DNA of 64,000 nt from Armatimonadota bacterium (GTDB lineage: Bacteria > Sysuimicrobiota > Sysuimicrobiia > Sysuimicrobiales > Humicultoraceae). The stretch covers positions 4,300 through 68,299 of the forward strand of contig JBBIOB010000006.1 in NCBI GenBank assembly GCA_037443565.1. The letters are read 5' to 3'. A program made the translations under genes and the position numbers. This document shows positions 1-18,346 of this stretch, in pieces. The notes below the pieces were generated by a model, which searched no databases, was not told where the DNA came from, and saw only the letters and a list, made by a program, of their open reading frames with translations. Numbering within the stretch: the stretch's first letter is position 1; each line of letters begins with the position of its first letter.

Positions 1-783
1 GATGGCATCCGCGCAGTGGGTCACCAGGACGGTGTACTCCTCGAAGCGCGGGGACTCGATCTCAGCGCCAACCGTCGCGATGCTCACCGCGGCGACGGCA
101 GCCCCGGTGTGGTCATAGACCGGCGCTGCGGCGCAGCGGATGAGTTCCTCGTGCTCTCCCGAGTCGACGGCATAGCCCCGCTGTCGCACGAGGGCCAGGT
201 GGTCCCGCAGGTCGTCCGCCGAGGTGATCGTTCTGGCCGTATACCGGCGCAGTCCTCGTCGCTGGAGGGCCTGATCCAGCAGGCCGTAGGGCAAGGCCGC
301 CAGCAGCGCCTTGCCGAGCCCGGTGCAGTGGGCGGGCGCGCGCCGGCCCACCTGGGAGTACATGCGGACCCTGCGGGTGCTCTCGATCTTGTCGATGTAG
401 ACGACCTCTCCCTCGTCGAGGATCGCCAGGTGCACCGTCTCCCCGCACGCCCGGTGCATCTCCTCCAGGTGGGGACGCGCGATCTGCCGCAGTTCCGCGC
501 TGTGGACGACAAGGCTCCCCAGCTCAAACAGGTGAAGCCCAAGGCGATATCGGCCGCTGATGGTGTCCTGGGTGACGAACCCCTCCCGCTCCAGCGTCAC
601 CAGCAGGCGGTGCACAGTGCTCTTGTGGAGCCCCAGGGTGCGCGCGAGGTCGGTAACCCCCAACTCGGGGGAGGACGCAGAGAATGCCTTGAGGATTCCG
701 ACGGCCCGCTCCACGGCACGGATACCGTGGGATCCGGCGGCCTGTCTGTCGTTGTCCCGTTGTATGAGACGCCGTCTCCGCAT
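1..783 (-). CDS. IclR-family transcriptional regulator; the C-terminus runs off the window start
   Basis: Minus-strand translation reads MRRRRLIQRDNDRQAAGSHGIRAVERAVGILKAFS...LGVTDLARTLGLHKSTVHRLL (HTH), then an effector-binding domain (VHLAILDEGEVVYIDKIES...). The listed plus-strand ORF 16..789 is its antisense shadow. Divergent from the sugar ABC operon. Confidence 0.7.
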   Translation of the reverse strand, partial: MRRRRLIQRDNDRQAAGSHGIRAVERAVGILKAFSASSPELGVTDLARTLGLHKSTVHRLLVTLEREGFVTQDTISGRYRLGLHLFELGSLVVHSAELRQIARPHLEEMHRACGETVHLAILDEGEVVYIDKIESTRRVRMYSQVGRRAPAHCTGLGKALLAALPYGLLDQALQRRGLRRYTARTITSADDLRDHLALVRQRGYAVDSGEHEELIRCAAAPVYDHTGAAVAAVSIATVGAEIESPRFEEYTVLVTHCADAI

Positions 784-959
784 TCTTGAAAGAGTCTTCT
801 CTGTGCGCCGCGGCGTCTCCTCCTATCCATGCCGCACCGGCGTGATCGCCGGGAAGACTTCGGCAGGGGATGCAGAAGGTCGTCGCGAAAGGTACACCGT
901 GGCGGTCTTCATAACCCTGTTCCACGGTACGAGACAACGAGCAGTGGGAGGGAGGAGGC

Positions 960-2531
960 ATGGGTACCGAGCTGGACGGCGTGAAGTGGACGCGTCGCGA
1001 GGTACTGAGGACAACCGTCGCTTTCAGCGGGGCGGCTCTGGCGTCGTCCGTACTGACGGGCTGCCGACGCGAAGCCGCGCAGGCGCCCACACCGGCACCG
1101 GTGACCGTCGCGAAGGTCGCCGGCGCCACCCCTGAGGAGCGCGCGCTCAACGGTATCAAGGCGCTCAAGGACGCCGGCAAGCTCAAGGCCGGCGAGACGT
1201 TCACCATCATGCACCACTCCGGTCAACGCAACAACATCGTTCCCGCCCTGGAGGAGTGGAACAAGCTCACCGGGCTGAAGTTCGTGAGCGCGGAGATCGG
1301 CGCCGAGCCGGACATCTACACCAAGTCGCTCCACGAGGCCGTGGCTCGCACCGGGAACTTCGACATCTTCTTGACGTTCGTGAACTGGATCGCGGACATG
1401 GCCGAGGCCGGTCTGATCGTGGACCTGACCGACTACTTCGCCAGGTATGACCCCGAAATCGACCATGGGCCGAATGCCTACGTCCCACCGCTGGACCGGT
1501 TCACAACCACCTACAAGGGGCGCCGGTTCGCGGTGGGTGCCGACGACGACGCCTTCAGTTGCTTCTACCGCAAGGACCTGATGGCAGACCCCAACGAGAA
1601 GAAGCGGTTTGAGGACAAGTACGGCCGGCCGCTGGAGGTCCCCAAGACCTGGAAGGAGTTCGACGAGTGGATCGCGTTTTTCGACCGGCCGGACAAAGGC
1701 CTGCGGGGCGCGCACATGTACGCCGAGCGCTACTTCGCCTACACGGCCTGGGCGGCGCGGTTCGTGTCCAGGGGGGGCGCATACTTCAACGACAACATGG
1801 ACCCGATGATCGCCTCGCCCGAAGGCGTCGGCGCGCTGGAGGAGCAGGTGAAGCTGGTTCGCAACCACATGCTCCCCGAAGCCGTCACCGGCGACTGGAC
1901 GGTGGCCTATTCCCGCTTCCCGGCGGGCGCGGTGTTCTTCGCGTGGGCCTGGCCGTCGCTGGGCAAATGGGCCGAGGACCCGAAGACCTCGAAGATCGTC
2001 GGCAAGGTGGGGGCCATGGAGGTCCCGGGCACCATGCACAACGGCGATCTCATCCGGGCGGTTCCCCATGTGGTGGGCTGGAGCTTCAGCGTCTCCCGTT
2101 ACGGCAAGAACCCAGAGGCCGCCTACTGCTTCATCCAGTGGTTCACCGGCCCGAAGACCGGCCTGGAGGCCATAGCCCGCGTGGGCACGCTGGACATCTT
2201 CCGGAAGCCGTGGTTCGAGGCCGAGGAGATGAAGAAGGCCTACGGCGCCGAGCTTCTGCCCATCCTGCTCAAGGGTACCCAGGATGCGTTCCCGGACCTC
2301 TCACTGCGAGGCGCCAACGAGTACCTGGACAAGCTCAACCTGAACCTGCAGCAGGCCTTCGCCGGGACCAAGGCCCCGGAGGCGGCCCTCAAGGACACGG
2401 AGGCCGAGTGGCAGAAGATCACCGACCGCCTCGGCCGCCTGGGACAGATCGAGGCCTGGCGCAGCGAGCGGCAGGGCTACCCGGCGCGGCTCCAGGACCT
2501 GTGGAAGAAGCTCGGGAAGTTCCCGCCCTAG
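960..2531 (+). CDS. Sugar ABC transporter substrate-binding protein (family 1, CUT1-type)
   Basis: 523 aa. RBS ggagggagga lies before the ATG. The N-terminus has a twin-arginine-like RREVLRTTVAFSGAALA signal with a Cys (possible lipoprotein). Overall composition is typical of extracellular solute-binding proteins. Confidence 0.8.
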   Translation: MGTELDGVKWTRREVLRTTVAFSGAALASSVLTGCRREAAQAPTPAPVTVAKVAGATPEERALNGIKALKDAGKLKAGETFTIMHHSGQRNNIVPALEEWNKLTGLKFVSAEIGAEPDIYTKSLHEAVARTGNFDIFLTFVNWIADMAEAGLIVDLTDYFARYDPEIDHGPNAYVPPLDRFTTTYKGRRFAVGADDDAFSCFYRKDLMADPNEKKRFEDKYGRPLEVPKTWKEFDEWIAFFDRPDKGLRGAHMYAERYFAYTAWAARFVSRGGAYFNDNMDPMIASPEGVGALEEQVKLVRNHMLPEAVTGDWTVAYSRFPAGAVFFAWAWPSLGKWAEDPKTSKIVGKVGAMEVPGTMHNGDLIRAVPHVVGWSFSVSRYGKNPEAAYCFIQWFTGPKTGLEAIARVGTLDIFRKPWFEAEEMKKAYGAELLPILLKGTQDAFPDLSLRGANEYLDKLNLNLQQAFAGTKAPEAALKDTEAEWQKITDRLGRLGQIEAWRSERQGYPARLQDLWKKLGKFPP

Positions 2532-2560
2532 GGCGTCGAGGCCGAGGCGAGCAGAACCGT

Positions 2561-3514
2561 ATGGTGTACTGGTGTAGGGAGCGCGTGGAGCGCATGGCGG
2601 GGCTGCTGGGAGGCCGGATCGCCGAAGTCGCCAACAGGGACAGCACTTTCAGGGTCATCCTGGTGGCCCCGCTGCAGCTCCTGCTGTGGTTCCTCCTCAT
2701 CGTTCCCACGCTGATCGTCCTCTACCTCAGCGTGGTGAACTGGCAGCCCATCATGGGTGTGGACTGGTGGCAGGCACCGCTGGCCTGGGTGGGCAACTAC
2801 GCCCGCGTTGTCCGCGATGTCCGGTTCTGGGAGGCCATGGCCCGCACGCTGGGCGTCGTGGTCGCCGCCGTCGGCCTGGAGTTCCTCCTGGGACTGGGAT
2901 TGGCGCTGCTGCTCAGGGGCGAGTTCCTGGGCAAGCGGTTCTTCACCTCGGTGATCCTGTATCCCATGATGCTGCCCTGGGTCGTCGTGGGGCTGGTGTT
3001 CTTCCTGCTCTTCCTTGACCGCGGGCCGGTCAACTACATCATCGGCCTGACCTTCGGCCCGGACGCGCCTTTCGACTGGTACGGGCACCCTCTCTCGGCG
3101 CTCGGGGTAATCGTGCTGGCCGACGTATGGCAGTGGACGCCGTTCATGTTCCTGATCCTGTACTCGGGGCTGGGGGCTCTCCCCAAGGAGCCCCAGGAAG
3201 CCGCCATGACCCTGGGGGCCAGCCCATGGCAGATCTTCCGGTACGTCATGCTTCCGATGCTGCGGCCCATCATCTACGTCGCGGTCGTGATCCGCGCGCT
3301 GGAAGCGTTCAAGATCTTCGATCTGGTGTTCATCATCACGCGCGGCGGCCCAGGAACCTCCACCGAGAGCATCTCGCTGTACATCTACCGGCTCAGCGCG
3401 ATCTACGGGCAGCTCTCCTACGCTGCGGCGATGGCGGTCCTGATCCTGGTCATGGTGGCAGTCCTGACCCGGTACGCCGTCAAGCCCATGGAGCAGCAGC
3501 AGGTGCCGCAGTGA
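2561..3514 (+). CDS. Sugar ABC transporter permease (MalF/UgpA-like)
   Basis: Multi-TM protein with EAA-type loop (EAAMTLGASPWQIFRYVMLPMLRP). The ATG at 2561 is the start in the correct frame; the longer listed ORF 1667..3514 is an upstream read-through. Confidence 0.8.
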   Translation: MVYWCRERVERMAGLLGGRIAEVANRDSTFRVILVAPLQLLLWFLLIVPTLIVLYLSVVNWQPIMGVDWWQAPLAWVGNYARVVRDVRFWEAMARTLGVVVAAVGLEFLLGLGLALLLRGEFLGKRFFTSVILYPMMLPWVVVGLVFFLLFLDRGPVNYIIGLTFGPDAPFDWYGHPLSALGVIVLADVWQWTPFMFLILYSGLGALPKEPQEAAMTLGASPWQIFRYVMLPMLRPIIYVAVVIRALEAFKIFDLVFIITRGGPGTSTESISLYIYRLSAIYGQLSYAAAMAVLILVMVAVLTRYAVKPMEQQQVPQ

Positions 3515-4368
3515 GGGGGCTGCTGCCGCTGGTGCGGTGGGTTGCCGCGGTTGCCGTGGCCGCCGTGGTCCTGATGCCGGTGGTCTGGGCCGTCTCGATC
3601 TCTTTCAAGCCGCCAGCCGAATGGGCCGCGCATCCGCCGCGGCTTGTTCCCGAAGAACCGACTCTGGCCAACTACCAGGTCCTGTTCCAGGTGGGCAACC
3701 CCGTCGGCGTAGTGGCAGAGATGACCCGGACCGCCGAGCCGGTGACCCGGGCGTTTATCACCAGCCTGATCGTGGCCCCCCTGGCTACTGCGGCCTCGGT
3801 GGCCATCGGCTTCTTCGCTGCGTACGCGGTCTCCCGCTACCAGGTGGGAGGGCCCATGCTGCCCTTCCTGGCGCTGACGACCCGCATGTTCCCGCCGGTG
3901 GCATTCGCGGTCCCGCTGCTCGTCTATTACCGCATGCTGGGGCTCATTGACACGCGGCTGGGCCTGGCCCTCATGTACACCGGGTTCACCGTGGCTTTCC
4001 CGCTGTGGATGATCAAGGGGTTCATTGACAGCGTGCCGCGCCACGTAGAGGAGGCGGCGATCCTGGACGGCGCCAGCCGCTGGCGGGTGCTGTTCACCAT
4101 CACCCTGCCGCTAGTCAAGGGCGGGGTGGCGGCCGCGCTGCTATTCGTGTTCATCCTGAACTGGACCGAGTTTTTGTTCGCCCTGATCTTCACCAGCCGC
4201 CACGCCATCACGCTCCCCGTCCAGGTCAGTTACTATGCCGGGGCGGTGGGACGCTTCTATGGGCCCCAGGCGGCCCTGGGCATCGTCGCCTCGCTGCCGG
4301 TCGTGATAGCTGGCTACGTGATTCAGCGGCACCTGGTGCGCGGGTTCACGTTCGGCCTGGTGAAGTAG
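3511..4368 (+). CDS. Sugar ABC transporter permease (MalG/UgpE-like)
   Basis: GTG start overlaps the previous stop (GTGA). Motif DGASRWRVLFTITLPLVKGG. About 285 aa. Confidence 0.8.
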   Translation: MRGLLPLVRWVAAVAVAAVVLMPVVWAVSISFKPPAEWAAHPPRLVPEEPTLANYQVLFQVGNPVGVVAEMTRTAEPVTRAFITSLIVAPLATAASVAIGFFAAYAVSRYQVGGPMLPFLALTTRMFPPVAFAVPLLVYYRMLGLIDTRLGLALMYTGFTVAFPLWMIKGFIDSVPRHVEEAAILDGASRWRVLFTITLPLVKGGVAAALLFVFILNWTEFLFALIFTSRHAITLPVQVSYYAGAVGRFYGPQAALGIVASLPVVIAGYVIQRHLVRGFTFGLVK

Positions 4369-4370
4369 TC

Positions 4371-5441
4371 GTGGCCACCATCGCGTTGCGGCGTCTCGTC
4401 AAGCGGTTCGGCAGCACTGTTGCCGTAGACGACGTATCACTGGACATCCCGCACGGGAAGCTGGTCTGCCTGCTGGGCCCCTCCGGGTGCGGTAAGACGA
4501 CGACGCTGCGGATGATCGCCGGCCTGGAGCAGCCGACCTCCGGGGAGATCCTGTTCGACGGCGCGCCGGTGAGCAACGTCCCCCCACAGCGCCGCGGAAT
4601 CGGGATGGTCTTCCAAAACTACGCCCTGTTCACGCACATGACGACGTACGACAACCTGGCGTTTGGGCTGCGCATCCGGGGCGAGCCTCGAGAGACCGTG
4701 GACGGGGAGGTCCGCCGCATGGCGGAGGTCCTGGAGCTGACGGCGGTGCTCGACCACCCGGCCGCGCGCCTCGACCTCAGCACCATGCAGCGCGTCGCAC
4801 TGGGCCGGACGTTGATCACCAGGCCTCGGGTGCTGCTGCTGGACGAGCCGCTCAACAACATCCGGCCCGGCCTGCGAGAGATGCTCCGAGCCGAGCTGCG
4901 CCGGCTTCAGCTGGACCTCAACCAGACCGCCGTCTACGTGACCCACGATCAGGAGGAGGCGCTCTCGCTGGCCGACCAGGTCATCATCATGGCCCGGGGG
5001 AAGGTGGAGCAGATCGGGTCGCCCGACGGAGTATATCGCCGTCCCCGCAACCGGTTCGTCGCGGCTTTCGTGGGTTCTCCGACCATGAACTTCCTCCCCT
5101 GCGAGGTGACCAGCCGGGACGGGGAGCCGCACCTGGCGGGCCCCGGGTTCGTCATCCCGGCCGGACGGCGCCCGGACCTGGGACCGCGCGGGCGGCTGAT
5201 CGTCCTGGGGATCAGGCCGGAGGGGGTCCGCCTGGGCGAAGGTCCGGTTTCCGCCGTCGTCATGCTCATCCAGCCGGCCGGCGCCGACCAGATCATCGAA
5301 TTGGCCGTGGGCGACCACCGGCTGCGTGCCCTGATCCGGCCCAGCCTCAGGCTAACCATCGGACAGCAGGTGGCACTGGACTTCCCGTCGGACGAACTGC
5401 ACCTCTTCGACGCCGCCACCGGTGAGGCGCTGGATGGCTGA
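4371..5441 (+). CDS. ABC transporter ATP-binding protein (MalK-like), degenerate signature and D-loop
   Basis: Walker A GPSGCGKTT; Q-loop MVFQ; Walker B LLLDEP; H-loop VTHDQ. The signature reads LSTMQ-RVA instead of LSGGQRQRVA, and the D-loop is NNIRP. A MalK-type C-terminal regulatory domain is present. Confidence 0.8.
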   Translation: MATIALRRLVKRFGSTVAVDDVSLDIPHGKLVCLLGPSGCGKTTTLRMIAGLEQPTSGEILFDGAPVSNVPPQRRGIGMVFQNYALFTHMTTYDNLAFGLRIRGEPRETVDGEVRRMAEVLELTAVLDHPAARLDLSTMQRVALGRTLITRPRVLLLDEPLNNIRPGLREMLRAELRRLQLDLNQTAVYVTHDQEEALSLADQVIIMARGKVEQIGSPDGVYRRPRNRFVAAFVGSPTMNFLPCEVTSRDGEPHLAGPGFVIPAGRRPDLGPRGRLIVLGIRPEGVRLGEGPVSAVVMLIQPAGADQIIELAVGDHRLRALIRPSLRLTIGQQVALDFPSDELHLFDAATGEALDG

Positions 5442-6510
5442 GATCGCGCTGCGCGACGTCGCCAAGCGCTACGGTCGGATCGAGGCGGTACGCGGCCTCT
5501 CGTTCGACGTCCGCTCGGGCGAGCTGGTCTGCCTGCTCGGTCCGCCTGGGATGGGCAAGACGACTACGCTGCGGCTGATCGCAGGGCTCGAGCGGCCCGA
5601 TCGCGGCGAGATCCTGATCGACGGGCAGTCCGTCGCCGGGCAGGAACCCGGCCAGCGGGACATCGCCATGGTCTTCGAGGACCTAGCCCTCTACCCGCAC
5701 ATGGAGGGCTTCGACAACATCGCGCACCCGCTGCGCCTGCGCCGTATGCCGATCGAGGAGATCCGGCGAAAGGTCGATCACGTGGCCGACCTCCTGGGAA
5801 TCCCACACCTGCTGGAGCGCCTGCCCCACACCTTCAGCGGCGGGGAGCAGCAGCGGGTCGCCATCGCCCGGGCGATCGTGCGCGAACCCAAGATCCTGCT
5901 GCTGGACCAGCCTCTGTCGAACCTGGACGCCAAGGTGCGCGAGGTCATGATCGGCGAGCTACGGCACCTCCAGCAGCGCACGCGCCAGACTACCATCTAT
6001 GCGACCCACGACTACGAGGAAGCCATGGCGTTGGGCGACCGCATCCTTGTGCTGCGGGAGGGGACGGCCGACCAGATCGGGACGCCGGAGGAGGTCTACG
6101 CCCGGCCGGCGACCACTCTGGCCGCCACCATCACGGGCAGCCCGCCCATGAACCTGATCCCCTGCCGCTTCAGCGGCGGCCTTGCCATGGCCGACGGGTT
6201 CACCATCTCGGCCCCCGGCGCCGAGGGAGAGGGGTTTCTGGGCATCCGCCCGGAGGAGGTGCGCTTGGGCGAGGGGATCCCCGCCGTCGTAGACCTGGTC
6301 CAGCCCCTGGGCCGCAAGAAGATCGTGGAGGTCACCGTCGGGCGCGTGCGGCTCAAGGTCACCGCCGGCCCCGAGTTCGCCGGCCAGCGCGGGGACACGA
6401 CGGCGGTGGCATTCGGCCCCTCCATCGTGCGCATCTACGGTGCGGACGGCCGCCTCTCGGCCACGAGGGCGACCGGACCGCCCTTCCAGCGAGGGGGAAC
6501 GATGGGCTGA
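5422..6510 (+). CDS. ABC transporter ATP-binding protein (MalK-like), Walker-B E-to-Q and Q-loop Q-to-E
   Basis: Walker A GPPGMGKTT; signature FSGGEQQRVAIARA; Walker B ILLLDQP, so the catalytic Glu is replaced by Gln; Q-loop MVFED; D-loop SNLDA; H-loop ATHDY. Overlaps the upstream ATPase gene by 20 nt. Confidence 0.8.
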   Translation: MRRWMAEIALRDVAKRYGRIEAVRGLSFDVRSGELVCLLGPPGMGKTTTLRLIAGLERPDRGEILIDGQSVAGQEPGQRDIAMVFEDLALYPHMEGFDNIAHPLRLRRMPIEEIRRKVDHVADLLGIPHLLERLPHTFSGGEQQRVAIARAIVREPKILLLDQPLSNLDAKVREVMIGELRHLQQRTRQTTIYATHDYEEAMALGDRILVLREGTADQIGTPEEVYARPATTLAATITGSPPMNLIPCRFSGGLAMADGFTISAPGAEGEGFLGIRPEEVRLGEGIPAVVDLVQPLGRKKIVEVTVGRVRLKVTAGPEFAGQRGDTTAVAFGPSIVRIYGADGRLSATRATGPPFQRGGTMG

Positions 6511-6553
6511 AGCCCATGCCCCTCTTCGTTTTCGCTGGGGTGCAGAGCCACCA

Positions 6554-7471
6554 TTACCTGAGCTTTGATACGTCCACCTGGAAGATGATCGGGAACAACG
6601 TCGACCATCGCAGCCAGCGCTTCGATCCGGCTTCAGACACGGACCAGAGGCGGCCTTCGTCGTCGAACGTGACGTCCTCGATGCCGATGACCACCTCATA
6701 GCGCGCGACGACAGCGCCAGACTTGGGGTCAACCTTCTGTAAGACACCACGCCTGCTGTTGCTGAAGGTCAACCAGAGGTTGCCCTGCCGGTCCACCGTC
6801 GCCCCCTGGCCGTTGACGCCGATGGCGAGAACAGACAGGGCCCGATCTTCCCTGACCGTCCCCCTCCCGTTGAACTCGTCAAACAACTTCAGGCTCACGC
6901 GGTGGAGCCTAGCCTTGCTCGCCTCGTCCTCCGACGAGCCGATCCAGAGATCCGTGCCGTCGAAGGCGGCAAAGGAACCCTTGAGATCACCGCCCAGGCG
7001 TATCGTGCTTTGCAGCGCGTTCTGAGTGTGGCCGTCGTGGAAGGCCCTCTGCACGTCGATCTTGTACAGCCGACGCGTGTCCGATACGACGAGTGAACCG
7101 TCCCTGAGGTACGCCAGTCCGCCGGCGTGCCCGCAGTCGGCCGGCATGTCGAACTGCGCGGTGTAGCGCCCGGAAGTTGGGTCCACCCTGAACACCCGGC
7201 ATGGGCCCGTTGACACATTGGGATCCGTGCTCCGGTACGCTGACATGACGATAGCGCCCTCCACGTACGTGAGACCCTGGGGCACGTAGCCCTCGTCGAG
7301 CCCCGGCGCCCAGATCCGCTTCACGATGGCCTGCTCGTTGGGCACTGACCCCGGACCGGATGCCAGGTAACCCGGTCTTGTGCCCAGGACCTCTGCGGCC
7401 AGGGCGACGAACACCGCAACGAACGTGAGCGACAGAGTGCCCGACAGCGGCAGCCGGGTTCTCGCGTTCAT
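6554..7471 (-). CDS. Secreted or membrane-anchored hypothetical protein, possibly a beta-propeller (glutaminyl-cyclase-like?)
   Basis: 305 aa. N-terminal signal/TM segment (LSLTFVAVFVALAA). GC3-rich. The family assignment is weak. Confidence 0.45.
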   Translation of the reverse strand: MNARTRLPLSGTLSLTFVAVFVALAAEVLGTRPGYLASGPGSVPNEQAIVKRIWAPGLDEGYVPQGLTYVEGAIVMSAYRSTDPNVSTGPCRVFRVDPTSGRYTAQFDMPADCGHAGGLAYLRDGSLVVSDTRRLYKIDVQRAFHDGHTQNALQSTIRLGGDLKGSFAAFDGTDLWIGSSEDEASKARLHRVSLKLFDEFNGRGTVREDRALSVLAIGVNGQGATVDRQGNLWLTFSNSRRGVLQKVDPKSGAVVARYEVVIGIEDVTFDDEGRLWSVSEAGSKRWLRWSTLFPIIFQVDVSKLR

Positions 7472-7657
7472 CGGGTCACCTCATCAGGCAGCCGCACCGG
7501 AATTCGCCCGAAGCCTACTGCCGCCCTCTCTCAGACCGCGTGGGCCTTGGGAGAGACTGTGCGAGCACTTCCGGGATTCCTGACCAACGCTCATCTGGGA
7601 GTACGCTCTGACTCTCGGGGTCCGTGTTCGCGATCGCGATCTGGCAGGGGACTGCAC

Positions 7658-7709
7658 TGGAGCGGGCGATGGGATTTGAACCCACGACCCTCGGCTTGGG
7701 AAGCCGATG
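7658..7709 (-). repeat. 52-nt perfect copy of the 3' part of tRNA-Gly(CCC), from the 3' end to the anticodon loop; an att-like direct repeat or pseudo-tRNA
   Basis: 7658-7709 is identical to 7747-7798. Identity stops exactly where the tRNA 5' half begins; the flanking sequence does not fold as a tRNA. Confidence 0.6.
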
Positions 7710-7746
7710 TTCACCCTGGCCGCTAGAACCCAGTCCTGATGCGGCC

Positions 7747-7823
7747 TGGAGCGGGCGATGGGATTTGAACCCACGACCCTCGGCTTGGGAAGCCGATGCT
7801 CTACCGCTGAGCTACACCCGCTC
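7747..7823 (-). tRNA. tRNA-Gly (anticodon CCC)
   Basis: Reverse complement GAGCGGGTGTAGCTCAGCGGTAGAGCATCGGCTTCCCAAGCCGAGGGTCGTGGGTTCAAATCCCATCGCCCGCTCCA has a 7-bp acceptor stem, D- and T-arms and anticodon loop TTCCCAA. Confidence 0.85.
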
Positions 7824-7870
7824 GCTACCCCCGATTATACCACGCCCCCGGGGGACGGCTCCTGCCTGGT

Positions 7871-8689
7871 TTAGCAGATTCCCACAACCTCCACCAGGTC
7901 GCCCTCGGCATCGGCGGCGAACCGGACAACCGACATCAGGCCCCAGCGGTCGGGCTTGCGGCCTTCCACTGAATAGGCGCCGCCCCACGCCGGGTGCACG
8001 CGACGGATGTGGCAAAGGCTGAACGCGACGTCGGCATCCGTGACCTCCGCGCGCTGTAGGGCCGGGCGAGCTCCGTCGGTGATGCGCACGCGACCAGCGG
8101 CTGCCAGCTCGCTGAGACGCTCGGTCGCTGCCGCGAGCGCGGCCGTATCGACGACAACCTCCTCCGCCCTGCCGCGCTCCGGATCAAACGGCGGGCACGC
8201 CGCGCACAGCGCCTGCGCGGTCAGGACGGCCTGGGCGGCCAGCTCGGCGCCCCGCCGGTAGACGGGGCCACAGGAGAAGTCGTCGCTCCACTGCGTGAAG
8301 GCCATCGGCCTGATGACGTTGCACTCCTCGCTGCCGAACTCCCGGACGAACTGCTCGTGGAGCCAGCGCACGAGCTGGCTGACCGCAGCGTTGTCTTCCT
8401 CGGGCTCCGTCCGTCCGTGGACGAACCCGGCGAGCATCGCCCCGGCTTCGAGCGCGCCACATCGATGCCCGTAGCCGCCCCCGCCCCCGCGAAATCCGCT
8501 GGAGACTCGCATCACCGAGGCGTCGAGGGTGATTCCCAGCGCGGCCGCGGCTCCGCGCAGCACGGCTTCGGAACAGTGGAATCCCTGCTTGCGGAGATCT
8601 TCGGCCCAGTCTCCGGCGTCTTTGATCCGTTGCGCCGCGGCCGGCTGCGAGGTGCCATTGGTGTCCATCGCGACACTCCCTGTGCCCAA
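7871..8689 (-). CDS. C_GCAxxG_C_C family (putative redox-active) protein
   Basis: Motifs FHCSEAVLRGAAAALG ... GYGHRCGALEAGAMLAG match the C-GCAxxG-C-C family pattern. Confidence 0.55.
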   Translation of the reverse strand: MGTGSVAMDTNGTSQPAAAQRIKDAGDWAEDLRKQGFHCSEAVLRGAAAALGITLDASVMRVSSGFRGGGGGYGHRCGALEAGAMLAGFVHGRTEPEEDNAAVSQLVRWLHEQFVREFGSEECNVIRPMAFTQWSDDFSCGPVYRRGAELAAQAVLTAQALCAACPPFDPERGRAEEVVVDTAALAAATERLSELAAAGRVRITDGARPALQRAEVTDADVAFSLCHIRRVHPAWGGAYSVEGRKPDRWGLMSVVRFAADAEGDLVEVVGIC

Positions 8690-8881
8690 GGACTCCCCCC
8701 AGATCCGCTTCCGGGCGAGCGGACCAGAGCCCTTCCGGTCCGGCCCGCGCAGCCCCTGAGGGCCGTCTGGCCCTGCGCCCGCATGGCCGGCGCGTGCGCG
8801 GCCAGGTAGCGCGCCGACGCAACCAGGACGTTAACCACCTCAGGCGCAACCGGCGCACGATCCGCACGGACCGGCTGTGGA

Positions 8882-9808
8882 TCACTCTCCGCGCAGGGGT
8901 CGGCCGCAGCGGCTGCAGAAGCGGTCGCCGGGCCGCGCGCGGTAGCCGCAGTGCGCGCAGAACTGTGCCTGGGATGCCGGCCGCCGGCGGTCCCTGCGCG
9001 TCGTCGCATCCGCGCGCGCAGCCGGCCGCAACGCGGGGCCGGCACCTTCGCGCCGCTGCGCCACCCAGAACGCTACCAGGGCTCCAACCCCCAGAACCGC
9101 CAGGACCAGCGCCACCCATCCCCAGGACGAGATCCGTATGGCCGACGATGCCGGCGTGGGTGGACCGGGAGGCGCGGCCGCCCGCGGCAGCGACGGCATC
9201 TCGTCGGCCTTCTCGTAGCTCGCCCTGACCGACCAGACCTGGCCGGCCGGCCAGGATCCCACGGTGTAGAGATGATGGGTGAAGCCCGCCGGGGTGACGG
9301 TCGTGCTCGCGGCCGGAGGATCCAGCACGAGCGCCGACGACCGGAACGGCTGCTCCACGGCGACGCGCATCGCGTTCACCGGGAGCGGGAAGACCAGGTC
9401 CGCGGTGAAGGTGCGCTGCGGGCGGCCCGTGATGAGGTCGGCGTAGTACTCGAACTGGAAGCCCCGCTCCGGCACCGTGAGCGTCACGAGCAGCCGGCCG
9501 CCCTCCTGCCGGTACTGGTAGTCGACCGAGTAGAGCTGCCCGTCGCCGGACCGATAGGCGGCGGCGTTGACCTGGGCGGCTGGGGGAACCGCGAACGTCA
9601 GCGTGTGGGGAACCGGCACCTCGCCGCTCAACTGCCCCCGGTAGATGATCAGCACGCGCGGGTCGTCGTGCTCGGGCCAGACATCGACGTTGAGGACCGC
9701 GATCGACGGGGCCGGTGCCGCCACAACCAGCTGTGCGGGCATCGCCGGATGGCCCACAAGCGCGAGGACCATGGCCGCGATGGGAACGAGCACACGACCG
9801 CTCCGCAT
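8882..9808 (-). CDS. Membrane-anchored protein with a C-terminal double zinc-ribbon
   Basis: N-terminal signal (VLVPIAAMVLALVG), extracytoplasmic domain, a single TM (WGWVALVLAVLGVGALVAFWV), then FCAHCGYRARPGDRFCSRCGRPL (CxxC...CxxC). Confidence 0.55.
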   Translation of the reverse strand: MRSGRVLVPIAAMVLALVGHPAMPAQLVVAAPAPSIAVLNVDVWPEHDDPRVLIIYRGQLSGEVPVPHTLTFAVPPAAQVNAAAYRSGDGQLYSVDYQYRQEGGRLLVTLTVPERGFQFEYYADLITGRPQRTFTADLVFPLPVNAMRVAVEQPFRSSALVLDPPAASTTVTPAGFTHHLYTVGSWPAGQVWSVRASYEKADEMPSLPRAAAPPGPPTPASSAIRISSWGWVALVLAVLGVGALVAFWVAQRREGAGPALRPAARADATTRRDRRRPASQAQFCAHCGYRARPGDRFCSRCGRPLRGE

Positions 9809-10063
9809 AAAGGAGGGATTTCGCGGAAGACCGCCGCATCTCCCACTCGTTGCGCGGGTGTATCCAGACGGGGGTGTGCGATGATGCGCAGGCGTCGTCT
9901 GTCAAACGGCCGGTGCGCCGCGTGGGGGAGGTCAGGGTGGGCACCTTCACGTACTTCTGCAACCGCCATCAGTCCATGCGCGGCGAGGTCGTGGTCAGGG
10001 AGTAGCCCGCCGCTGCTCGGCACCGCGCCGTCAGCGCCGTCTTGCATCGGGCGTGGCGGCGCG

Positions 10064-10090
10064 GTATGATTTTAGTTGAGACTAAATGTT
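10064..10090. promoter_or_regulatory. AT-rich island with an inverted repeat TTAGT-N4-ACTAA; candidate metal-box operator and promoter for the dtxR-like/feoB operon
   Basis: gtatgattttagttgagactaaatg is the only AT-rich stretch within a few hundred bp. It lies about 100 bp upstream of the regulator start and loosely resembles DtxR/IdeR iron boxes. Confidence 0.4.
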
Positions 10091-10177
10091 CGCCGGGGCG
10101 GGGGCCCGACGACGGAGCCTCCGCCTTGAACCATCGAAGACGCCCTCAAGCACGTCCACGATGCCAACCACCGCGGC

Positions 10178-11035
10178 GTGCCCGTGACGCTGGAGTCGCT
10201 CGCCGCACGGCTCGGGCGGCGCACCGGCGCGGTTCTGCGGCTGGTCGAGCGCATGCACGCCGACGGCCTGGTCGAGACCGGTCCTTCGGGCCTGCGGCTC
10301 ACGGCGACCGGCAACGACTGGGCGCTGCAGGTCGTCCGCGCCCACCGCCTGTGGGAGCGCTATCTCTCCGATCAGGCGGGCTGGCCTCTGGCCGACCTTC
10401 ACGCCGAGGCGGACCGCCGCGAGCACTCCCGTCCACCCGGCGAACTGGATGCCCTGGACGCCGGGCTGGGACACCCCCCGCACGACCCGCACGGCGATCC
10501 CATCCCGACGGCATCGGGCGATCTCGAGCGCAAGCCCAGCGTGTCGCTGACACGGTGGCCCGTCGGCGTGCCCGGTGAGATCGCGCACATCGAGGACGAA
10601 CCGGCCGCGGCCTACGAGCAGATCCTGGCGATGGGCCTGCGGCCCGGTGCGCAGATCCGCGTCATCGAATCTACACCCTCGCGGCTGCTGGCCGAGGTGG
10701 ACCTGGCGCAGCACAGCCTGGCGCCGATCGTGGCCGCAGGCGTAGCGGTCAGGCCGGCGGCACACATCCCCACACCCGTAGGCGTGCCCTTGACGGCGCT
10801 CCGCGTCGGCGATCGGGCCACGGTCAGCGCGCTGGACGCCTCCTGCCAGGGTCTGACGCGGCGACGCTTGCTCGACCTTGGGGTCACGCCGGGCGTGACG
10901 ATCGAGGCCGCCCTGCCAAACCCGTTCGGCGACCCGCTCGCCTACCGGGTACGCGGCACGCTGATCGCGCTCCGGAGCGAACAGGCGCAACACGTCATCG
11001 TCGACCCGACCACGATCACGCGCGGAGCGCACTGA
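10178..11035 (+). CDS. DtxR/IdeR-family metal-dependent regulator fused to two FeoA (SH3-like) domains
   Basis: The HTH (VTLESLAARLGRRTGAVLRLVERMHADGLVE) is followed by metal-site residues HAEADRREHS...HGDPIP, then two FeoA-like repeats (VGVPGEIAHIEDEP...IRVIE and LRVGDRATVSALDA...). The same frame is open back to 10130 and encodes helix-1-like IEDALKHVHDANHRG, but with no canonical start there. Confidence 0.7.
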   Translation: MPVTLESLAARLGRRTGAVLRLVERMHADGLVETGPSGLRLTATGNDWALQVVRAHRLWERYLSDQAGWPLADLHAEADRREHSRPPGELDALDAGLGHPPHDPHGDPIPTASGDLERKPSVSLTRWPVGVPGEIAHIEDEPAAAYEQILAMGLRPGAQIRVIESTPSRLLAEVDLAQHSLAPIVAAGVAVRPAAHIPTPVGVPLTALRVGDRATVSALDASCQGLTRRRLLDLGVTPGVTIEAALPNPFGDPLAYRVRGTLIALRSEQAQHVIVDPTTITRGAH

Positions 11036-12879
11036 TGGATCCCGGAGCCCCCCGGACGGCAGCACTGGGGATCCGAACGCCGAACCCGGACTACGTCGTG
11101 GCGCTGGCCGGCAACCCCAACACCGGCAAGAGCACGGTCTTCAACGCGTTGACCGGCCTGCGGCAGCACACCGGCAACTGGCCGGGCAAGACGGTGGCGC
11201 GCGCCGAAGGGGTCCTCGAGCACCGTGGCCGCAAGTACGCGCTGGTCGACCTGCCCGGGACCTACTCCCTGCTCTCGGCGTCGGTCGACGAAGAGATCGC
11301 CCGGGACTTCATCCTGTTCGGCCGGCCCGACTGCACGATCGTCACCCGTCCACGCCGTCTCGAGGTGGGCGCACCGCTGGCCCGGGCCGCGGACGAACTG
11401 GCTGTGATGCTTGACCGGGCGTACCCAGGCCTGCCAAGCGCCAGGTGGATCGGCATGCGGCTGCTCGACGGCGACCAACGCGTGCGTGAGGCGGTGCGCG
11501 GCGGCGCCGACATCCTGGCACGGGCCGACGCCCTGCGCCGCACCCTCGACGGCGCCTTCCGCGATCGGCTCGTCGAGGCAATCTACGCCGAGGCCCAGCG
11601 TATCGCGGCCCGCGCGGTGCGCCAGACTGGACGCGCTCGGGTCGACGCCGACCACTGGGTCGACCGGGTCCTGACCTCGCGCATCTTCGGCCTGCCGATC
11701 ATGCTGGCCACACTCGCGCTGGTCTTCTGGATCACCGTCAGCCTGGCCAACGTCCCCTCCGAGCTGCTGGCGGGGTTCCTCTTCTGGATCGAGGAACAGG
11801 GCGCGGCCGCGTTCGGCCGCCTGGGCGTACCGGCGTGGATTGCCGGCCTGATCTGGCACGGGACGTACCGCGGCCTGGCGTGGGTGGTGTCGGTCATGCT
11901 GCCGCCGATGGCCATCTTCTTCCCGCTGTTCACGATCCTCGAGGACCTGGGCTACCTGCCACGCGTGGCGTTCAACCTGGATCGGCTGTTCCGCCGCGCC
12001 GGCGCGCACGGGAAGCAGGCGCTCACGATGAGCATGGGGTTCGGATGCAACGCCGCGGGCGTGATCGCGACCCGCATCATCGACAGTCCGCGCGAGCGGC
12101 TGATCGCGATCCTCACCAACACGTTCGTGCCGTGCAACGGGCGCTTCCCGACGTTGATCCTGTTGGCCTCGGTCTTCGTCGCCGCCGCCCTGCCGGCACA
12201 CCTCGCCGCCCTCGCCGCCGCCGGGTCGGTCGTACTGGTCGTGCTCATCGGCGTGATCGTCACGCTGGTCGCGTCGTGGGGCATGTCGCGGACGGTCCTG
12301 CGCGGCGAGCCGTCGGCGTTCACGCTCGAGCTGCCGCCGTTCCGCCGGCCCGACGTCATCCGCATCCTCTACACATCGCTGATCGACCGCACGCTGTTCG
12401 TGCTGATGCGGGCGGTCAAGGTGGCCGTCCCGGCCGGGACGATCATCTGGATCCTCGGCAACGTGCCCCTCGGCGGCCGGAGTCTGAGCGCGCTGGCCGC
12501 GGGCCTGCTCGATCCGCTGGGGCGCGCGGTCGGGCTCGACGGCGTGATCATGGCCTTCGTGATCGCGATCCCGGCAAACGAGATCGTCCTGCCGACGGTC
12601 CTGATGGTCTACGCGGGCGCGGGCATGATGATCGGCCCGGAGGGATTCGACAACTTGAGAGATCTGCTCGTCGGCGACCACGGCTGGACGCTGCTGACCG
12701 CGGTGAACCTGATGCTGTTCAGCCTGCTGCACAACCCCTGCGGCACGACGATCTGGACGATCTGGGCCGAGACCCGCAGCCCGCGGTGGACGGCGCTCGG
12801 CGCGCTGGTGCCGCTCGGAGTCGCCTTCGCCGTCACCTTCGCCACGGCGACGCTTGCCCGGATCTTGGGCTGGATCTAG
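11035..12879 (+). CDS. feoB: Ferrous iron transporter FeoB
   Basis: G1 GNPNTGKST and G3 DLPGTYS, then a GDI-like linker and polytopic membrane domain (DRVLTSRIFGLPIMLATL...). The ATG overlaps the regulator's stop (ATGA). Confidence 0.85.
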   Translation: MDPGAPRTAALGIRTPNPDYVVALAGNPNTGKSTVFNALTGLRQHTGNWPGKTVARAEGVLEHRGRKYALVDLPGTYSLLSASVDEEIARDFILFGRPDCTIVTRPRRLEVGAPLARAADELAVMLDRAYPGLPSARWIGMRLLDGDQRVREAVRGGADILARADALRRTLDGAFRDRLVEAIYAEAQRIAARAVRQTGRARVDADHWVDRVLTSRIFGLPIMLATLALVFWITVSLANVPSELLAGFLFWIEEQGAAAFGRLGVPAWIAGLIWHGTYRGLAWVVSVMLPPMAIFFPLFTILEDLGYLPRVAFNLDRLFRRAGAHGKQALTMSMGFGCNAAGVIATRIIDSPRERLIAILTNTFVPCNGRFPTLILLASVFVAAALPAHLAALAAAGSVVLVVLIGVIVTLVASWGMSRTVLRGEPSAFTLELPPFRRPDVIRILYTSLIDRTLFVLMRAVKVAVPAGTIIWILGNVPLGGRSLSALAAGLLDPLGRAVGLDGVIMAFVIAIPANEIVLPTVLMVYAGAGMMIGPEGFDNLRDLLVGDHGWTLLTAVNLMLFSLLHNPCGTTIWTIWAETRSPRWTALGALVPLGVAFAVTFATATLARILGWI

Positions 12880-14013
12880 TCAGCGCGCGGCACGGAGCCG
12901 CGCGCTCCTGATCTCTTCAACCACAAGAGGGTCCCGCTCGGATTCGTATGCCTGGCGCAGCGCGGCCATCGCCGCCGCACCGCCGATCTTCCCCAGCGCC
13001 CAGGCCGCGTGCCCGCGGACCACAGGATCGACAGGATCGTGGAGCGCGACGATCAGCTCGGGGACGGCGCGCGCATCGCCCAAGTTGCCCAGCGCCACGG
13101 CCACGTTGCGGCGCAGGCCGCCGCGCCCGGCGCGCTTGACCGCGCTGCGACGGAACCGGCGGCGGTAGTCGGCCTCCGAGAGGTTCAACAGCGGCAGCAG
13201 GCGCGGCCGCGTCCCGGTCTCGGGCCGCGGATGGAACTCCGCGTGCGCCGTGAGCGTGACGCGGCGGTTGAACGGGCAGGCCTGCTGGCAGAGGTCGCAG
13301 CCGAAGATCATGTCCTCGAGCGTGGGCCGCACCTCGCGCGGGATCCATCCCCGGTGCTCGATGGTCCAGTACGAGATGCACCGGCGCGCGTCGACGACAC
13401 CGGGCTCCACGATCGCGCCGGTGGGACAGGCCTCGGTGCCGTGATAGCAGCTCTCGCACAGGCCGCAGTCGCCCCCCGCCGGCGGATCAGGCGCGAGCGC
13501 CAGGTCGGTCAGGATCTCGCCCAGCACCACCCAGGTGCCGAACGCCCTCGTGATCAGGCAGGTATGGCGGCCACACCAGCCCAGTCCGGCGCGCTGAGCA
13601 ATAGCGCGGTCAAGCAGCGGGCCGGTGTCCACGTAGCAGCGCGCCAGGTGCGCGCCCTGCGCGACCAGGAACGCACCGAGCGCGCGCAGGCGCTCCTCCA
13701 TGACCAGGTGGTAGTCGTCGCCCCACGCGTAGCGGCTGATCCGGCCCCGCAGCTCGCCGTCGGGGGGATCGGGCTCGCCCGCGCAGTAGTTCATGGCCAC
13801 GGCCACGATGGCGCGCGCGCCGGCGCGGACGCGCCGCGGGTCGCCGACGCGGTCACGGTGCGCTTCCATGTACGCCATGCCCGCGTGCATCCCGGCCTCC
13901 AGCCAGCGGTGGTACGCGGCCTCGGCTTCGGGCAACGGCTCGGCGGTGGTGATCCCCACCAAGTCGAAGCCGACCTCGCGCGCCTTCGACTTGACAGCTT
14001 CCTCGAGCGTCAC
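12880..14013 (-). CDS. queG: Epoxyqueuosine reductase
   Basis: 4Fe-4S Cys clusters (CGLCESC, CDLCQQACP), a cobalamin-binding region and C-terminal HEAT-like repeats (AAWALGKIG). GTG start. Confidence 0.8.
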   Translation of the reverse strand: MTLEEAVKSKAREVGFDLVGITTAEPLPEAEAAYHRWLEAGMHAGMAYMEAHRDRVGDPRRVRAGARAIVAVAMNYCAGEPDPPDGELRGRISRYAWGDDYHLVMEERLRALGAFLVAQGAHLARCYVDTGPLLDRAIAQRAGLGWCGRHTCLITRAFGTWVVLGEILTDLALAPDPPAGGDCGLCESCYHGTEACPTGAIVEPGVVDARRCISYWTIEHRGWIPREVRPTLEDMIFGCDLCQQACPFNRRVTLTAHAEFHPRPETGTRPRLLPLLNLSEADYRRRFRRSAVKRAGRGGLRRNVAVALGNLGDARAVPELIVALHDPVDPVVRGHAAWALGKIGGAAAMAALRQAYESERDPLVVEEIRSARLRAAR

Positions 14014-14026
14014 GACATCGCCACAG

Positions 14027-15160
14027 TCACGGTCGCCGGATGGGCCGGACCAACAGCCCCAGGACGATGAGGGCGCCGACGCCGACCGACATCAGCAGCG
14101 GATAGGCGGGATTGATCCTGTAGGCGAACCCGCCCGCAAACGCGCCAGCCGCCGCGAGCACCGCGGAGAGCATCCCGGCCAGCGCAAACGCCCGTCCCAG
14201 GACCGCGGGCGGGGTGGTGGCGCCGACCATCGCCTGGGCGAGCGTGTGCAGCGGTGCCCGGCACCGCAGCGCCGCGGCCGGAAAGAGCAGGCCGTAGGGA
14301 CCGTAGGAGGTCAGCAGGATCCCGGCTGAGTGCACCCCGATCTGCCAGTGCATGGTCTGCGTCAGGCCGACGCGGTCGCCGAGGCGGCCGGCGATCGGCG
14401 TGAGCAGGACCGCGCCGACCGCCTGGAGCGACCCGAGCAGCCCGATCTCGGACAGCGAGACGCCGCGCACCTCGCGCAGGAACGGGGGCACAAACGGCAC
14501 GGTGAGCAGCACCATGAAGTAGACGCCGACGTAGACCGCCAGCGCCGGCGCCGCGGGAACCAGGTCGGCCCACGTCATCCGGCCCGCGCCGTGCGCCGGC
14601 ATCGTGCCCGGGCCGCTCCGCTCGAGCCGGAGTACGAGCAGCGTGGAGGCCAGGAAGAGCGCGAAGGCGATGACGAGCACCGTTCGGATGTCCCAGCGGT
14701 CGGCGATGATGCCGCCCGCGGTGGGCGAGACGAGGAACGCCATGGACGTGATCGTGCCCATCGCACCGAAGGCGGAGGCGAGTTGTCCGGGCGGCACGCG
14801 CTCCGTCACGTAGGCGCTGATCGCCGGCAGCGCGAAGAACGTGAGCTCGTAGAGGAGCAGGCCCGGCAGCAGCCACAGGTAGCTCGGGGCCGCGGCGAGC
14901 ATCAGCGGCACCGGCAGCCCGCAGAACCACGAAGCGAGCATCAGCGTCCGGCGGCTGAACCGGTCGACGAACAGCCACCCGATGAGGAAGCCGCCGGCCA
15001 ACCCCAGGTTCCTCAGGGTGAAGAGCGTCCCAAGCTGGACCGGCGAGGCCCCGAGCTGACGGGCGTAGATAGGGAGCAGCCCCTCGTACAGGCCGACGCC
15101 CAGCAGCCACAGGAAGAGCGAGCCGAAGAGCAGGCGCAGGTTGTGGTCGGCCGTCAGCAT
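14027..15160 (-). CDS. MFS transporter
   Basis: 377 aa with 12 predicted TMs and typical MFS loop motifs. Confidence 0.75.
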   Translation of the reverse strand: MLTADHNLRLLFGSLFLWLLGVGLYEGLLPIYARQLGASPVQLGTLFTLRNLGLAGGFLIGWLFVDRFSRRTLMLASWFCGLPVPLMLAAAPSYLWLLPGLLLYELTFFALPAISAYVTERVPPGQLASAFGAMGTITSMAFLVSPTAGGIIADRWDIRTVLVIAFALFLASTLLVLRLERSGPGTMPAHGAGRMTWADLVPAAPALAVYVGVYFMVLLTVPFVPPFLREVRGVSLSEIGLLGSLQAVGAVLLTPIAGRLGDRVGLTQTMHWQIGVHSAGILLTSYGPYGLLFPAAALRCRAPLHTLAQAMVGATTPPAVLGRAFALAGMLSAVLAAAGAFAGGFAYRINPAYPLLMSVGVGALIVLGLLVRPIRRP

Positions 15161-15169
15161 CGCGCGGGC

Positions 15170-16180
15170 TCAGCGGCCCACCGCGCGCACGACGAGTCCG
15201 CGGCGGGCGACGCGTGCCGGCAGCACGCCGAACCCCGCGGCGCGCAGGGCGTCCTCACAGTAGCGCTTGGCCCCGGCGCGCACAAAGCACAGCACGCTCC
15301 CTCCGCCTCCCGCGCCGCAGACCTTGGCGGCGAGCGCGCCGTGTCGCCTCGCGACCGCCATCGCGCGCTCGACGACGGGCGTCGAGACCCCGGGCGCGAG
15401 CCGGCGCCGGTGCTCCCACTCCTCGGCGAGCAGCGATCCCACCGTGTCGAGGTCGCGGACACGCAGCGCCCGTCGCATCCGGCGGGCCACGTCCGCGATG
15501 CTGCGCAGATGGTTCACCGTCGCGGGCGTACCGTCCAGGTAGGCGCGGACCACGCCCCAGTTCGTCAGGCCTGAGGCGTGCGGCGCGCCGGTGTAGGCGA
15601 TGACCAGGCGCTCCTGAAGGCCCCTGCGCAGCGCCGTACTGCCGCCCAACGGCTCGACGAGGTCGGGCGCGGCGCCGAACCGGATCGCGTTCATGCCTCC
15701 CCACACCGCGGCCAGGTAGTCCTGCCGTCCGGTGAGCGTGCGCAGCGCCTGCGCTTCGAGTCGCCACGCGGTCAGGACCAGGTCGTCGCGCCCGCGCCGG
15801 CGCTTACCCAGCCGGTCGAGCGCGGCCAGCAGGGCGACCAGCAGCGCCGACGACGCGCCGAGTCCCGATCCCGGCGGCGCCGACGACCAGAGCGTCACCT
15901 TCAGGCCCGGCGGAGGCCCGGCGAATCGCAGCGCCCGGCAGGCCGGGCCCAGCGGTTCGTCGAGGGGCATCGCGTCCAGCGAGGGCGCGGTCACCCGCTG
16001 TCGCAGGTCCCTCGAGACAATGGTGTATCCGCCCGGCGCACGCTCCAGCCGGACGCGCACCGGGATGTCGACCGCAACGTTGACGGTCCAGACGTCGTCC
16101 TCGAGCAGATATAGAGGATGGATGTCGAGCGTCCCGCCGGCCAGATCCACACGGGTCGGCGCTCGCGCCTCGACGATCAT
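15170..16180 (-). CDS. GHMP-family kinase (sugar-kinase/HddA-like N-terminus)
   Basis: MIVEARAPTRVDLAGGTLD; GHMP motif SSAPPGSGLGASSALLVALL; C-terminal KVCGAGGGGSV. The ATG overlaps the upstream gene's stop (ATGA). Confidence 0.7.
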   Translation of the reverse strand: MIVEARAPTRVDLAGGTLDIHPLYLLEDDVWTVNVAVDIPVRVRLERAPGGYTIVSRDLRQRVTAPSLDAMPLDEPLGPACRALRFAGPPPGLKVTLWSSAPPGSGLGASSALLVALLAALDRLGKRRRGRDDLVLTAWRLEAQALRTLTGRQDYLAAVWGGMNAIRFGAAPDLVEPLGGSTALRRGLQERLVIAYTGAPHASGLTNWGVVRAYLDGTPATVNHLRSIADVARRMRRALRVRDLDTVGSLLAEEWEHRRRLAPGVSTPVVERAMAVARRHGALAAKVCGAGGGGSVLCFVRAGAKRYCEDALRAAGFGVLPARVARRGLVVRAVGR

Positions 16181-16854: not shown

Positions 16855-16901
16855 GGTGGATTCCGTGCCGGGGGATTTCGTCGGCGGGGCGCGCCCTCCC
16901 T

Positions 16902-16934
16902 ACGCCGCGCGCGTGTTTCACACGCGCGCGGCGT
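16902..16934. promoter_or_regulatory. Perfect inverted repeat (14-bp GC arms, 5-nt loop) in a divergent intergenic region
   Basis: acgccgcgcgcgtg-tttca-cacgcgcgcggcgt lies about 100 bp upstream of the korD start. No U-tract follows on either strand, so it is not a classic terminator. Confidence 0.5.
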
Positions 16935-17028
16935 CCATAGCGCGAAATACGGTCTCTAGCCGATACGGCGCCTCCTGGAAATTCCCTACAGTAGGCACGG
17001 GAGTCCTCCCTTCGACGGGGGCAGATGC

Positions 17029-18343: not shown

Positions 18344-18346
18344 GGC

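Follow-up and report, generated by a model that had tools for sequence, protein, structure and literature searches.

A close partial copy of a tRNA-Gly(CCC) gene in an Armatimonadota bacterium, probably the remnant of an integrase island that lost its interior

Introduction

Pairs of a tRNA gene and a displaced tRNA gene fragment are the basis of genomic island mapping; most islands leave a 3' fragment, an anticodon-centred site is used by about half of them, and the Islander procedure discards candidates that lack an integrase or are shorter than 2 kb (PMC4383910). Among integrative conjugative and mobilizable elements (ICE/IME systems), decayed elements (CIMEs) keep attL and attR, and accretion of another element can follow (PMC5704250). 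Partial tRNA genes made by integration can be mis-called by tRNA finders, and in the published examples the element separates them from the full gene by about 9-23 kb (PMC9897764).

Here we describe a locus of an Armatimonadota bacterium (assembly GCA_037443565.1, contig JBBIOB010000006.1) in which an intact tRNA-Gly(CCC) gene is accompanied by a partial copy of its own 3' part. The whole stretch analysed, 64,000 nt in length, is called the window, and positions refer to its own numbering. As in islands of the Islander type, an intact tRNA gene has a displaced, directly oriented 3' fragment on its 3' side, the block of identity reaches from the anticodon arm to the 3' end, and relatives carry islands at the same tRNA gene. 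In contrast to such islands, gene and fragment are separated by only 36-37 bp and no integrase is present, and because the locus lacks both the integrase and the length of at least 2 kb that the Islander filters demand, it is considered a remnant and not an island. The CIMEs described in streptococci retain kilobases of DNA and arm sequences. Like these, the window locus keeps both att cores, attL and attR, has no genes for integration, recombination or transfer, and occupies a site where further elements can land; unlike them, it has almost no arm DNA, and because the arm sites are almost entirely missing, excision or mobilisation of the remnant in cis would be doubtful. By analogy, the structure can be viewed as an extreme form of a CIME-like decayed element. 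Finally, similar to integration-made partial tRNA genes, the fragment scores above the threshold of the Rfam tRNA model (34.3 versus 29 bits) yet is no tRNA gene, and it differs from the published cases in lying only 37 bp from the full gene.

Results

A perfect direct repeat formed by the 3' part of tRNA-Gly(CCC)

A repeat search of the window revealed one strong direct-repeat family with units at 7657-7712 and 7746-7801, which are 56 nt long, 98% identical and spaced by 89 nt. Their sole mismatch is at 7710/7799, leaving 53 nt of perfect identity (7657-7709 and 7746-7798). An earlier note on this DNA had reported a perfect direct repeat of 52 nt; the repeat is indeed direct and perfect, and its length has to be corrected by one base on the tRNA 3' side. 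When up to three mismatches were allowed, a 32-mer from the repeat occurred at exactly two sites in the window and at none in 100 shuffles. On the minus strand, ARAGORN called one tRNA, an intact tRNA-Gly(CCC) gene with encoded CCA at 7747..7821, which reaches 72.8 bits with the Rfam tRNA model and shares 100% identity with its counterpart in L052, the closest relative. Copy 1 of the repeat (7746..7798, minus strand), delimited by repeat and pattern search, would be the att core inside the functional gene, on the attL side. In tRNA sense, the repeat comprises positions ~25-76 and 1 further nt; it starts 2 bases ahead of the anticodon stem and covers the whole anticodon arm, variable loop, T arm, 3' acceptor strand, CCA and one G. 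An extent from the tRNA 3' end through the anticodon loop, as proposed before, is therefore right at the 3' end and too short at the other, where the repeat also takes in the complete anticodon stem-loop and a further two bases. Copy 2 (7657..7709, minus strand), delimited in the same way, is a detached, attR-like tRNA 3' fragment. It is located on the downstream side of the minus-strand gene in the same strand and orientation as the gene, in line with the orientation that had been claimed, and past the 53 identical nt it resembles copy 1 over three more nt (7710-7712) with one mismatch. The gap from the partial copy to the gene amounts to 37 nt (7710-7746), as noted earlier, and that between the two perfect repeats to 36 nt. 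The whole structure of core, spacer and core measures ~142 nt.

At copy 2 no tRNA was called by ARAGORN. The Rfam score of 34.3 bits, above the gathering threshold of 29, was obtained for 7661-7723, that is, for the fragment with 14 upstream bases, and the model shows no D arm and 5 of the 7 acceptor pairs. For this copy, neither a complete cloverleaf nor conservation with covariation, by which a functional tRNA or tRNA-like RNA would be recognised, was found. Besides tRNA matches, an Rfam scan of 6500-9000 yielded nothing. A TATAAT box read from the sequence at 7834..7839 (minus strand), 12 nt upstream of the tRNA 5' end, is the probable -10 element of the tRNA promoter, and a TATAAT-like hexamer is present at about the same distance in most of the related loci with enough upstream sequence. 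A consensus-based promoter and terminator scan of 7300-8000 was empty and thus gave no full -35/-10 promoter. At 7628-7639, 18 nt past the partial copy, a perfect 12-nt palindrome (TCGCGATCGCGA) is found.

The tandem arrangement among related loci

With a 50-nt core as query, one scan each of genome and metagenome collections gave 7 and 32 loci, respectively; two closer relatives, L052 and L053, were found via homologues of the upstream gene, which makes 41 loci in all. Where core matches carry a source name, they are mostly metagenome-assembled genomes (MAGs) of Armatimonadota. The 50-nt core is present as a single copy in all 41 related loci, and a close tandem arrangement of tRNA and fragment occurs in none of them (0/41), the two closest relatives included; the nearest case is L035, where a 15-nt fragment lies ~325 nt from its tRNA. 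Because no related locus carries the close tandem, the arrangement is, judged from these comparisons, not a conserved structured element. The same tandem in all relatives, which the earlier note had named as the pattern that would speak against its reading, is thus not what we encountered.

The note had also predicted that an empty site would have one tRNA and no repeat. This is the situation in L052, where a single tRNA is found and no fragment within 6 kb. The window shares ~80% DNA identity with L052 through the upstream gene and the tRNA, and this identity ends exactly at the tRNA 3' end, at 7747. For L053, synteny at ~80% DNA identity is observed as well, and its contig stops inside the tRNA. 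The empty sites seen differ from the window in their downstream flank, and none of those among the loci found is from the same species. Between QueG and the C_GCAxxG gene, the window (8882-12879) contains a zinc-ribbon protein gene and FeoA/FeoB, in L052 and L053 the C_GCAxxG gene follows QueG directly, and more distant relatives have a homologue of the zinc-ribbon protein gene (8882-9808) between QueG and the tRNA.

A scan of genome contigs with the upstream C_GCAxxG protein found no relative, and scans of viral contigs with the 52-nt core and with both core-spacer junctions gave 0 matches. A 28-nt T-arm/acceptor pattern matched eight viral contigs, seven with a full tRNA-Gly gene and one (L004) with a bare 3' fragment. 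In this low-GC contig, the fragment (GAGGGTCGTGGGTTCAAATCCCATCGCCCGCTCCA, 1265-1292) adjoins an uncharacterised 275-aa ORF; it may belong to an unrelated phage with the same tRNA end as its target and serve there as attP. Only generic tRNA matches were returned by BLAST against phage records.

tRNA-Gly(CCC) as an integration hot spot in the relatives

Three loci (L019, L048 and L037) are 97.5-99% identical over 0.9-1.5 kb upstream of the tRNA, yet directly past the CCA they continue with unrelated DNA, a terminator hairpin, an integrase island and another element, one each. In L051 a tRNA with its flank and in L042 a bare 3' fragment with its flank are found, and the two flanks are 100% identical over 1500 nt, so that these loci form a pair of empty site and right junction. 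Similarly, in L036 a bare fragment is joined to a left arm that in L037 follows an intact tRNA (95% identity over 633 nt), so that L036 represents an attP form or a tandem junction. In L017/L029/L042 and in L036, the detached fragments set in with the first anticodon-stem base, and that of L026 reaches into the D arm; identity of the window repeat starts 2 nt before the boundary of the fragments in L017/L029/L042 and L036.

Eight loci have a conserved arm behind the tRNA and an integrase ORF next to this arm. The two of these ORFs that were tested with Pfam (L031 and L048) encode a Phage_integrase with an N-terminal SAM-like domain (E ~1e-30), and downstream of the integrase, cas3 (L031) or a PLD-SNF2 helicase (L048) is encoded. 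The occupied sites that the earlier note had expected in related genomes are therefore present at the same tRNA. The integrase family has 311 members at E<=1e-40, few of which have a source name, most of these being called Armatimonadota. P'-type trailers without an adjacent integrase are found in L015, L018 and L050, and in L035 15 nt that exactly repeat the 3' acceptor end of the tRNA (2946-2960; tRNA-Gly at 3285-3359) within a degenerate, T-arm-like stretch look like a second small scar. These comparisons show that the tRNA-Gly(CCC) gene is an integration hot spot in the relatives and, because of the trailers without integrase and the L035 fragment, that decayed remnants are common at this gene in the clade. 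The cargo of the inserted DNA has a defence-type or plasmid-like character, with cas3 in L031, the PLD-SNF2 helicase and the next ORF in L048, and AbiEi/AbiEii in L052; an inserted ORF in L036 has the look of a primase-polymerase, judged by appearance only.

Integrase start and left arms in the relatives

In all eight integrase-bearing loci (L031, L048, L013, L021, L023, L038, L047 and L049), the integrase frame (proteins P0140-P0198) is open from a GTG inside the T stem of the tRNA (VGSNPIARS...). Across the seven loci compared codon by codon, the 24 codons past the CCA are free of indels, and no other in-frame ATG, GTG or TTG precedes the SAM-like domain, except that two loci have a TTG inside EAFLL. 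The same pattern is exhibited by family members that are apparently located at other tRNAs (MGSSPAGRAN..., GGSIPSGPAK...). Substitutions in the 24 codons (131/134/142) have no third-position bias, and invariant blocks such as GTTTCAGCCGTT are evident at the DNA level. Either the integrase would start inside the att core, or the region would be a DNA-level site with a non-canonical start downstream. Were the open frame from the T stem to the integrase coding, the window spacer would represent the remains of integrase codons. About +54 to +66 past the CCA, the left arms of L031, L021 and relatives contain AAGCCGATGCTC, an inverted copy of tRNA positions 22-33 (GAGCATCGGCTT) at the left boundary of the att core, which may be a putative integrase binding site. 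Weak nhmmer matches to sequence of the AAGCCGATGCTC type are located at 7700-7718 and 7789-7808 of the window.

The spacer between the copies

In the loci compared, the trailers past the CCA fall into two classes, native trailers and element left arms. Native trailers consist of a complete hairpin (GGGACGCGGG-TTTCAG-CCCGCGTCCC) that starts 18-22 nt past the CCA and is followed by a T-rich stretch, whereas element left arms have the first hairpin half only, always from +16, and run on towards the integrase. The window spacer belongs to the second class. Its GGGTT..AGC motif starts at +16 past the CCA, as in all P'-type loci, while native trailers have it at +18 to +22. When the first 27 nt (7720..7746, minus strand; GGCCGCATCAGGACTGGGTTCTAGCGG in tRNA sense) were compared base by base from the CCA, 19/27 identities were obtained with L031, 18/27 with L050 and 17/27 with L021, as opposed to 6-10/27 with native terminator-type trailers. 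Only 1 of 200,000 random 27-mers of the window reaches 19 identities with L031, and correction for ~20 distinct comparisons leaves roughly p = 1e-4 for this match. The homology rests on this register-fixed pairwise test; an nhmmer profile of seven left arms run over the whole window did not recover the spacer and gave no match on the tRNA strand at E<=100. Across the integrase family, no integrase N-terminal region closer to the spacer than L031/P0140 was found. These identities show that the start of the spacer resembles the left arm of an element and not a native terminator, and the first 27 nt would be the left (P') arm remnant of an integrase-bearing element. The last 10 nt (7710..7719, minus strand; CCAGGGTGAA in tRNA sense), presumed to be the end of the right (P) arm, have a weak likeness to tRNA positions 15-24; comparison with the P-arm ends of L042, L036 and L026 and with the tRNA 5' part gave p values of 0.18-0.72, which are not significant.

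Surroundings of the locus in the window

The G+C content of the window is ~69%, with 66-68% in 1-8000, on the tRNA 3' side, versus 71-73% in 8001-22000, on the 5' side, and the step sits at about the tRNA. On the 5' side, genes for a C_GCAxxG_C_C family protein (7871..8668, minus strand; Pfam), the zinc-ribbon protein, FeoA/FeoB and QueG are encountered, the first of these being immediately upstream of the tRNA on the conserved, native side. On the 3' side, the gene that comes first past the partial copy (6554..7471, minus strand) has a 305-aa product that Pfam does not match and that is called a (sugar lactone) lactonase in some sources; a sugar-type ABC transporter follows. The 305-aa protein gene is a marker of non-syntenic DNA, which starts at the tRNA 3' end. 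Its product has 646 homologues, and the named ones (53-59% identity) include proteins of a deltaproteobacterium, Sulfuritalea and Rhodoferax; a homologue with 84% identity (L011) adjoins what appears, from translation by eye only, to be a C-terminal transposase fragment. The downstream flank of the window is common to none of the related loci. Past copy 2 it matches no native trailer, no terminator-type trailer is found there, and it may itself be foreign.

No integrase was detected by Pfam on the genes between 960 and 38162, nor by tblastn with two integrases from relatives on the whole window and on an 11-kb overlapping contig (L001), which bears out the earlier statement that none is nearby. 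The search for a third copy, suggested as a way to find a displaced element, came out negative: no further copy of any tRNA part is present in the whole window or in the 3.4 kb by which L001 extends it, a search that covers 11 kb downstream.

Discussion

We consider it probable, at about 75%, that the two copies are the attL/attR pair of a tyrosine-integrase element whose interior was deleted. Integration and loss had been the first option of the earlier note, and in position, orientation and left boundary the fragment agrees with the genuine detached fragments of L042, L036 and L026. Integrase islands at the same tRNA, a spacer of the left-arm type and the lack of close tandem copies in 41 related loci further support it. 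An element of the tyrosine-integrase family seen in the relatives would have inserted into tRNA-Gly(CCC), recombining in or near the anticodon arm. The insertion would have rebuilt the tRNA from the element's own copy of the 3' two-thirds and displaced the original fragment downstream. Without catalysis at the cores, a deletion would later have removed nearly the whole element including its integrase and left between the cores ~27 nt of the left arm and at most ~10 nt of the right arm. Such a deletion would have been illegitimate or driven by short homology, because site-specific excision would restore a single core. We infer the former presence of the element, its loss in a single step and the origin of the last 10 nt, the first of these because, apart from the 37 nt, the window contains neither element DNA nor an integrase. 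A deletion that ends ~27 and ~10 nt from the cores is a priori unlikely and counts against this explanation, and junction homology for it could not be demonstrated. A deletion via a TTTCRGCC-like motif of both arms was thought of and set aside as conjecture, the similarity on the right-arm side not being significant.

The att-pair features seen in the window are a direct repeat of the tRNA end, a boundary at the anticodon arm and a P'-type spacer, whereas an integrase between the repeats is missing. As only 36-37 nt separate the copies and no integrase homologue was found in the window, the locus is filed as a remnant and not as a resident element. Today it is most likely an inert scar, with an intact tRNA gene and a fragment that has neither a D arm nor a matching 5' acceptor strand. 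Direct repeats of 53 nt spaced 89 bp apart are expected to be unstable. This expected instability and the perfect identity of the cores suggest that the duplication event is recent.

The partial copy could also form the left boundary of a second, integrase-less island with its far end beyond the window; the lactonase-like gene for the 305-aa protein and the sugar ABC transporter would be among its contents. Such tandem accretion, for which the decayed elements of ICE/IME systems offer the precedent, is compatible with a deleted first element and would be additional to it. The lower G+C content on the tRNA 3' side, a downstream flank shared with no related locus and devoid of a terminator-type trailer behind copy 2, and the patchy distribution of the 305-aa protein, with its 84% homologue beside the apparent transposase fragment seen by eye, fit this proposal. 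However, the 7.6 kb up to the start of the window and 3.4 kb more of L001 contain no third tRNA fragment, and that side encodes no integrase or other mobility gene, its genes being ordinary metabolic ones. We regard a second island as rather unlikely. Slippage or unequal exchange could also have duplicated part of the tRNA gene locally, leaving a pseudo-tRNA and involving no mobile element; this would be in keeping with copies 89 bp apart, with a second copy above the Rfam gathering threshold, and with the 24 nt before copy 2, which by hand count match the tRNA 5' part in register at 14/24 positions. This last likeness is not significant under shuffling (p = 0.21), and 53 nt without a single difference next to 24 nt with ~40-50% mismatch are unlike uniform decay. 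Local duplication further predicts that the spacer is repeated after copy 2 or before copy 1, and neither repeat is present; the start of the spacer matches the left arms of elements instead. With no full-length copy, no even decay and no duplicated flanks, as expected for a tandem tRNA duplicate or pseudogene, we judge this origin unlikely.

A mis-join, or a collapsed or duplicated repeat, also deserves attention, as the window is apparently a MAG contig and tRNA genes common to co-occurring relatives break assemblies; indeed, Logan contigs of SRR11582161 assembled at k=31 end inside this tRNA and inside the fragment. Yet the 36-nt spacer is unique and flanked by cores, so that any read with the spacer supports both junctions, and the ~142-nt structure fits one read. 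Artefacts of k-mer overlap yield adjacent copies without a spacer. The largest k of common assemblers exceeds 53 nt, the length of the perfect repeat. An assembly error is very unlikely. The Logan breaks are neutral here, being explained by a tRNA variant in the D loop and by branching after the CCA. Contig ends of this kind (L001 starts 31 nt inside the fragment and L002 ends inside the tRNA) had been considered as independent evidence for the repeat and were withdrawn because at k=31 such breaks follow from the tRNA variants (AGCGG/AGTGG, D loop) and from branching past the CCA. A maintained function, either as a D-arm-less tRNA-like RNA co-transcribed with the tRNA or as a second landing site for integrases, is the most improbable of the readings considered. 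For it one may cite the fold of the 107-nt stretch from the tRNA end through copy 2, which beats shuffles (z = -2.6), the GGCCGC/GCGGCC stem formed by the spacer, the Rfam score with 5/7 acceptor pairs, and the perfect identity of an unstable 53-nt repeat, which could hint at selection. On the other hand, the arrangement is absent from 41 of 41 related loci, the two closest included, so that neither conservation nor covariation is seen; the fold signal comes mostly from the tRNA arms, the ARAGORN result was negative, and a recent origin explains perfect identity equally well. It is likewise very improbable that the 89-bp unit of core and 36-nt spacer is anything but inert, be it a minimal att cassette or a D-arm-less tRNA-like RNA with a role of its own. 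If it were such a cassette, it would be a duplicated landing pad, or the smallest element mobilizable in cis, still recombined by integrases of the local island family, and if the unit were maintained, the perfect identity of an unstable close repeat would reflect selection and not youth.

On the reading of a deleted-interior element, the feature is most likely an ordinary type of genomic scar in an unusually small form. By itself it matters little, as the footprint of an integrase island once carried and then lost at tRNA-Gly(CCC), and its fragment is a trap for tRNA annotation. It would have more value as a pointer to tRNA-Gly(CCC) as a busy integration site in a poorly known, uncultured lineage, used by a large tyrosine-integrase family with defence-type islands (cas3, PLD-SNF2 helicase) as well as by two or more other elements. 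The scar would also show that islands can be pared down far below the size limits of island finders while both att cores persist intact.
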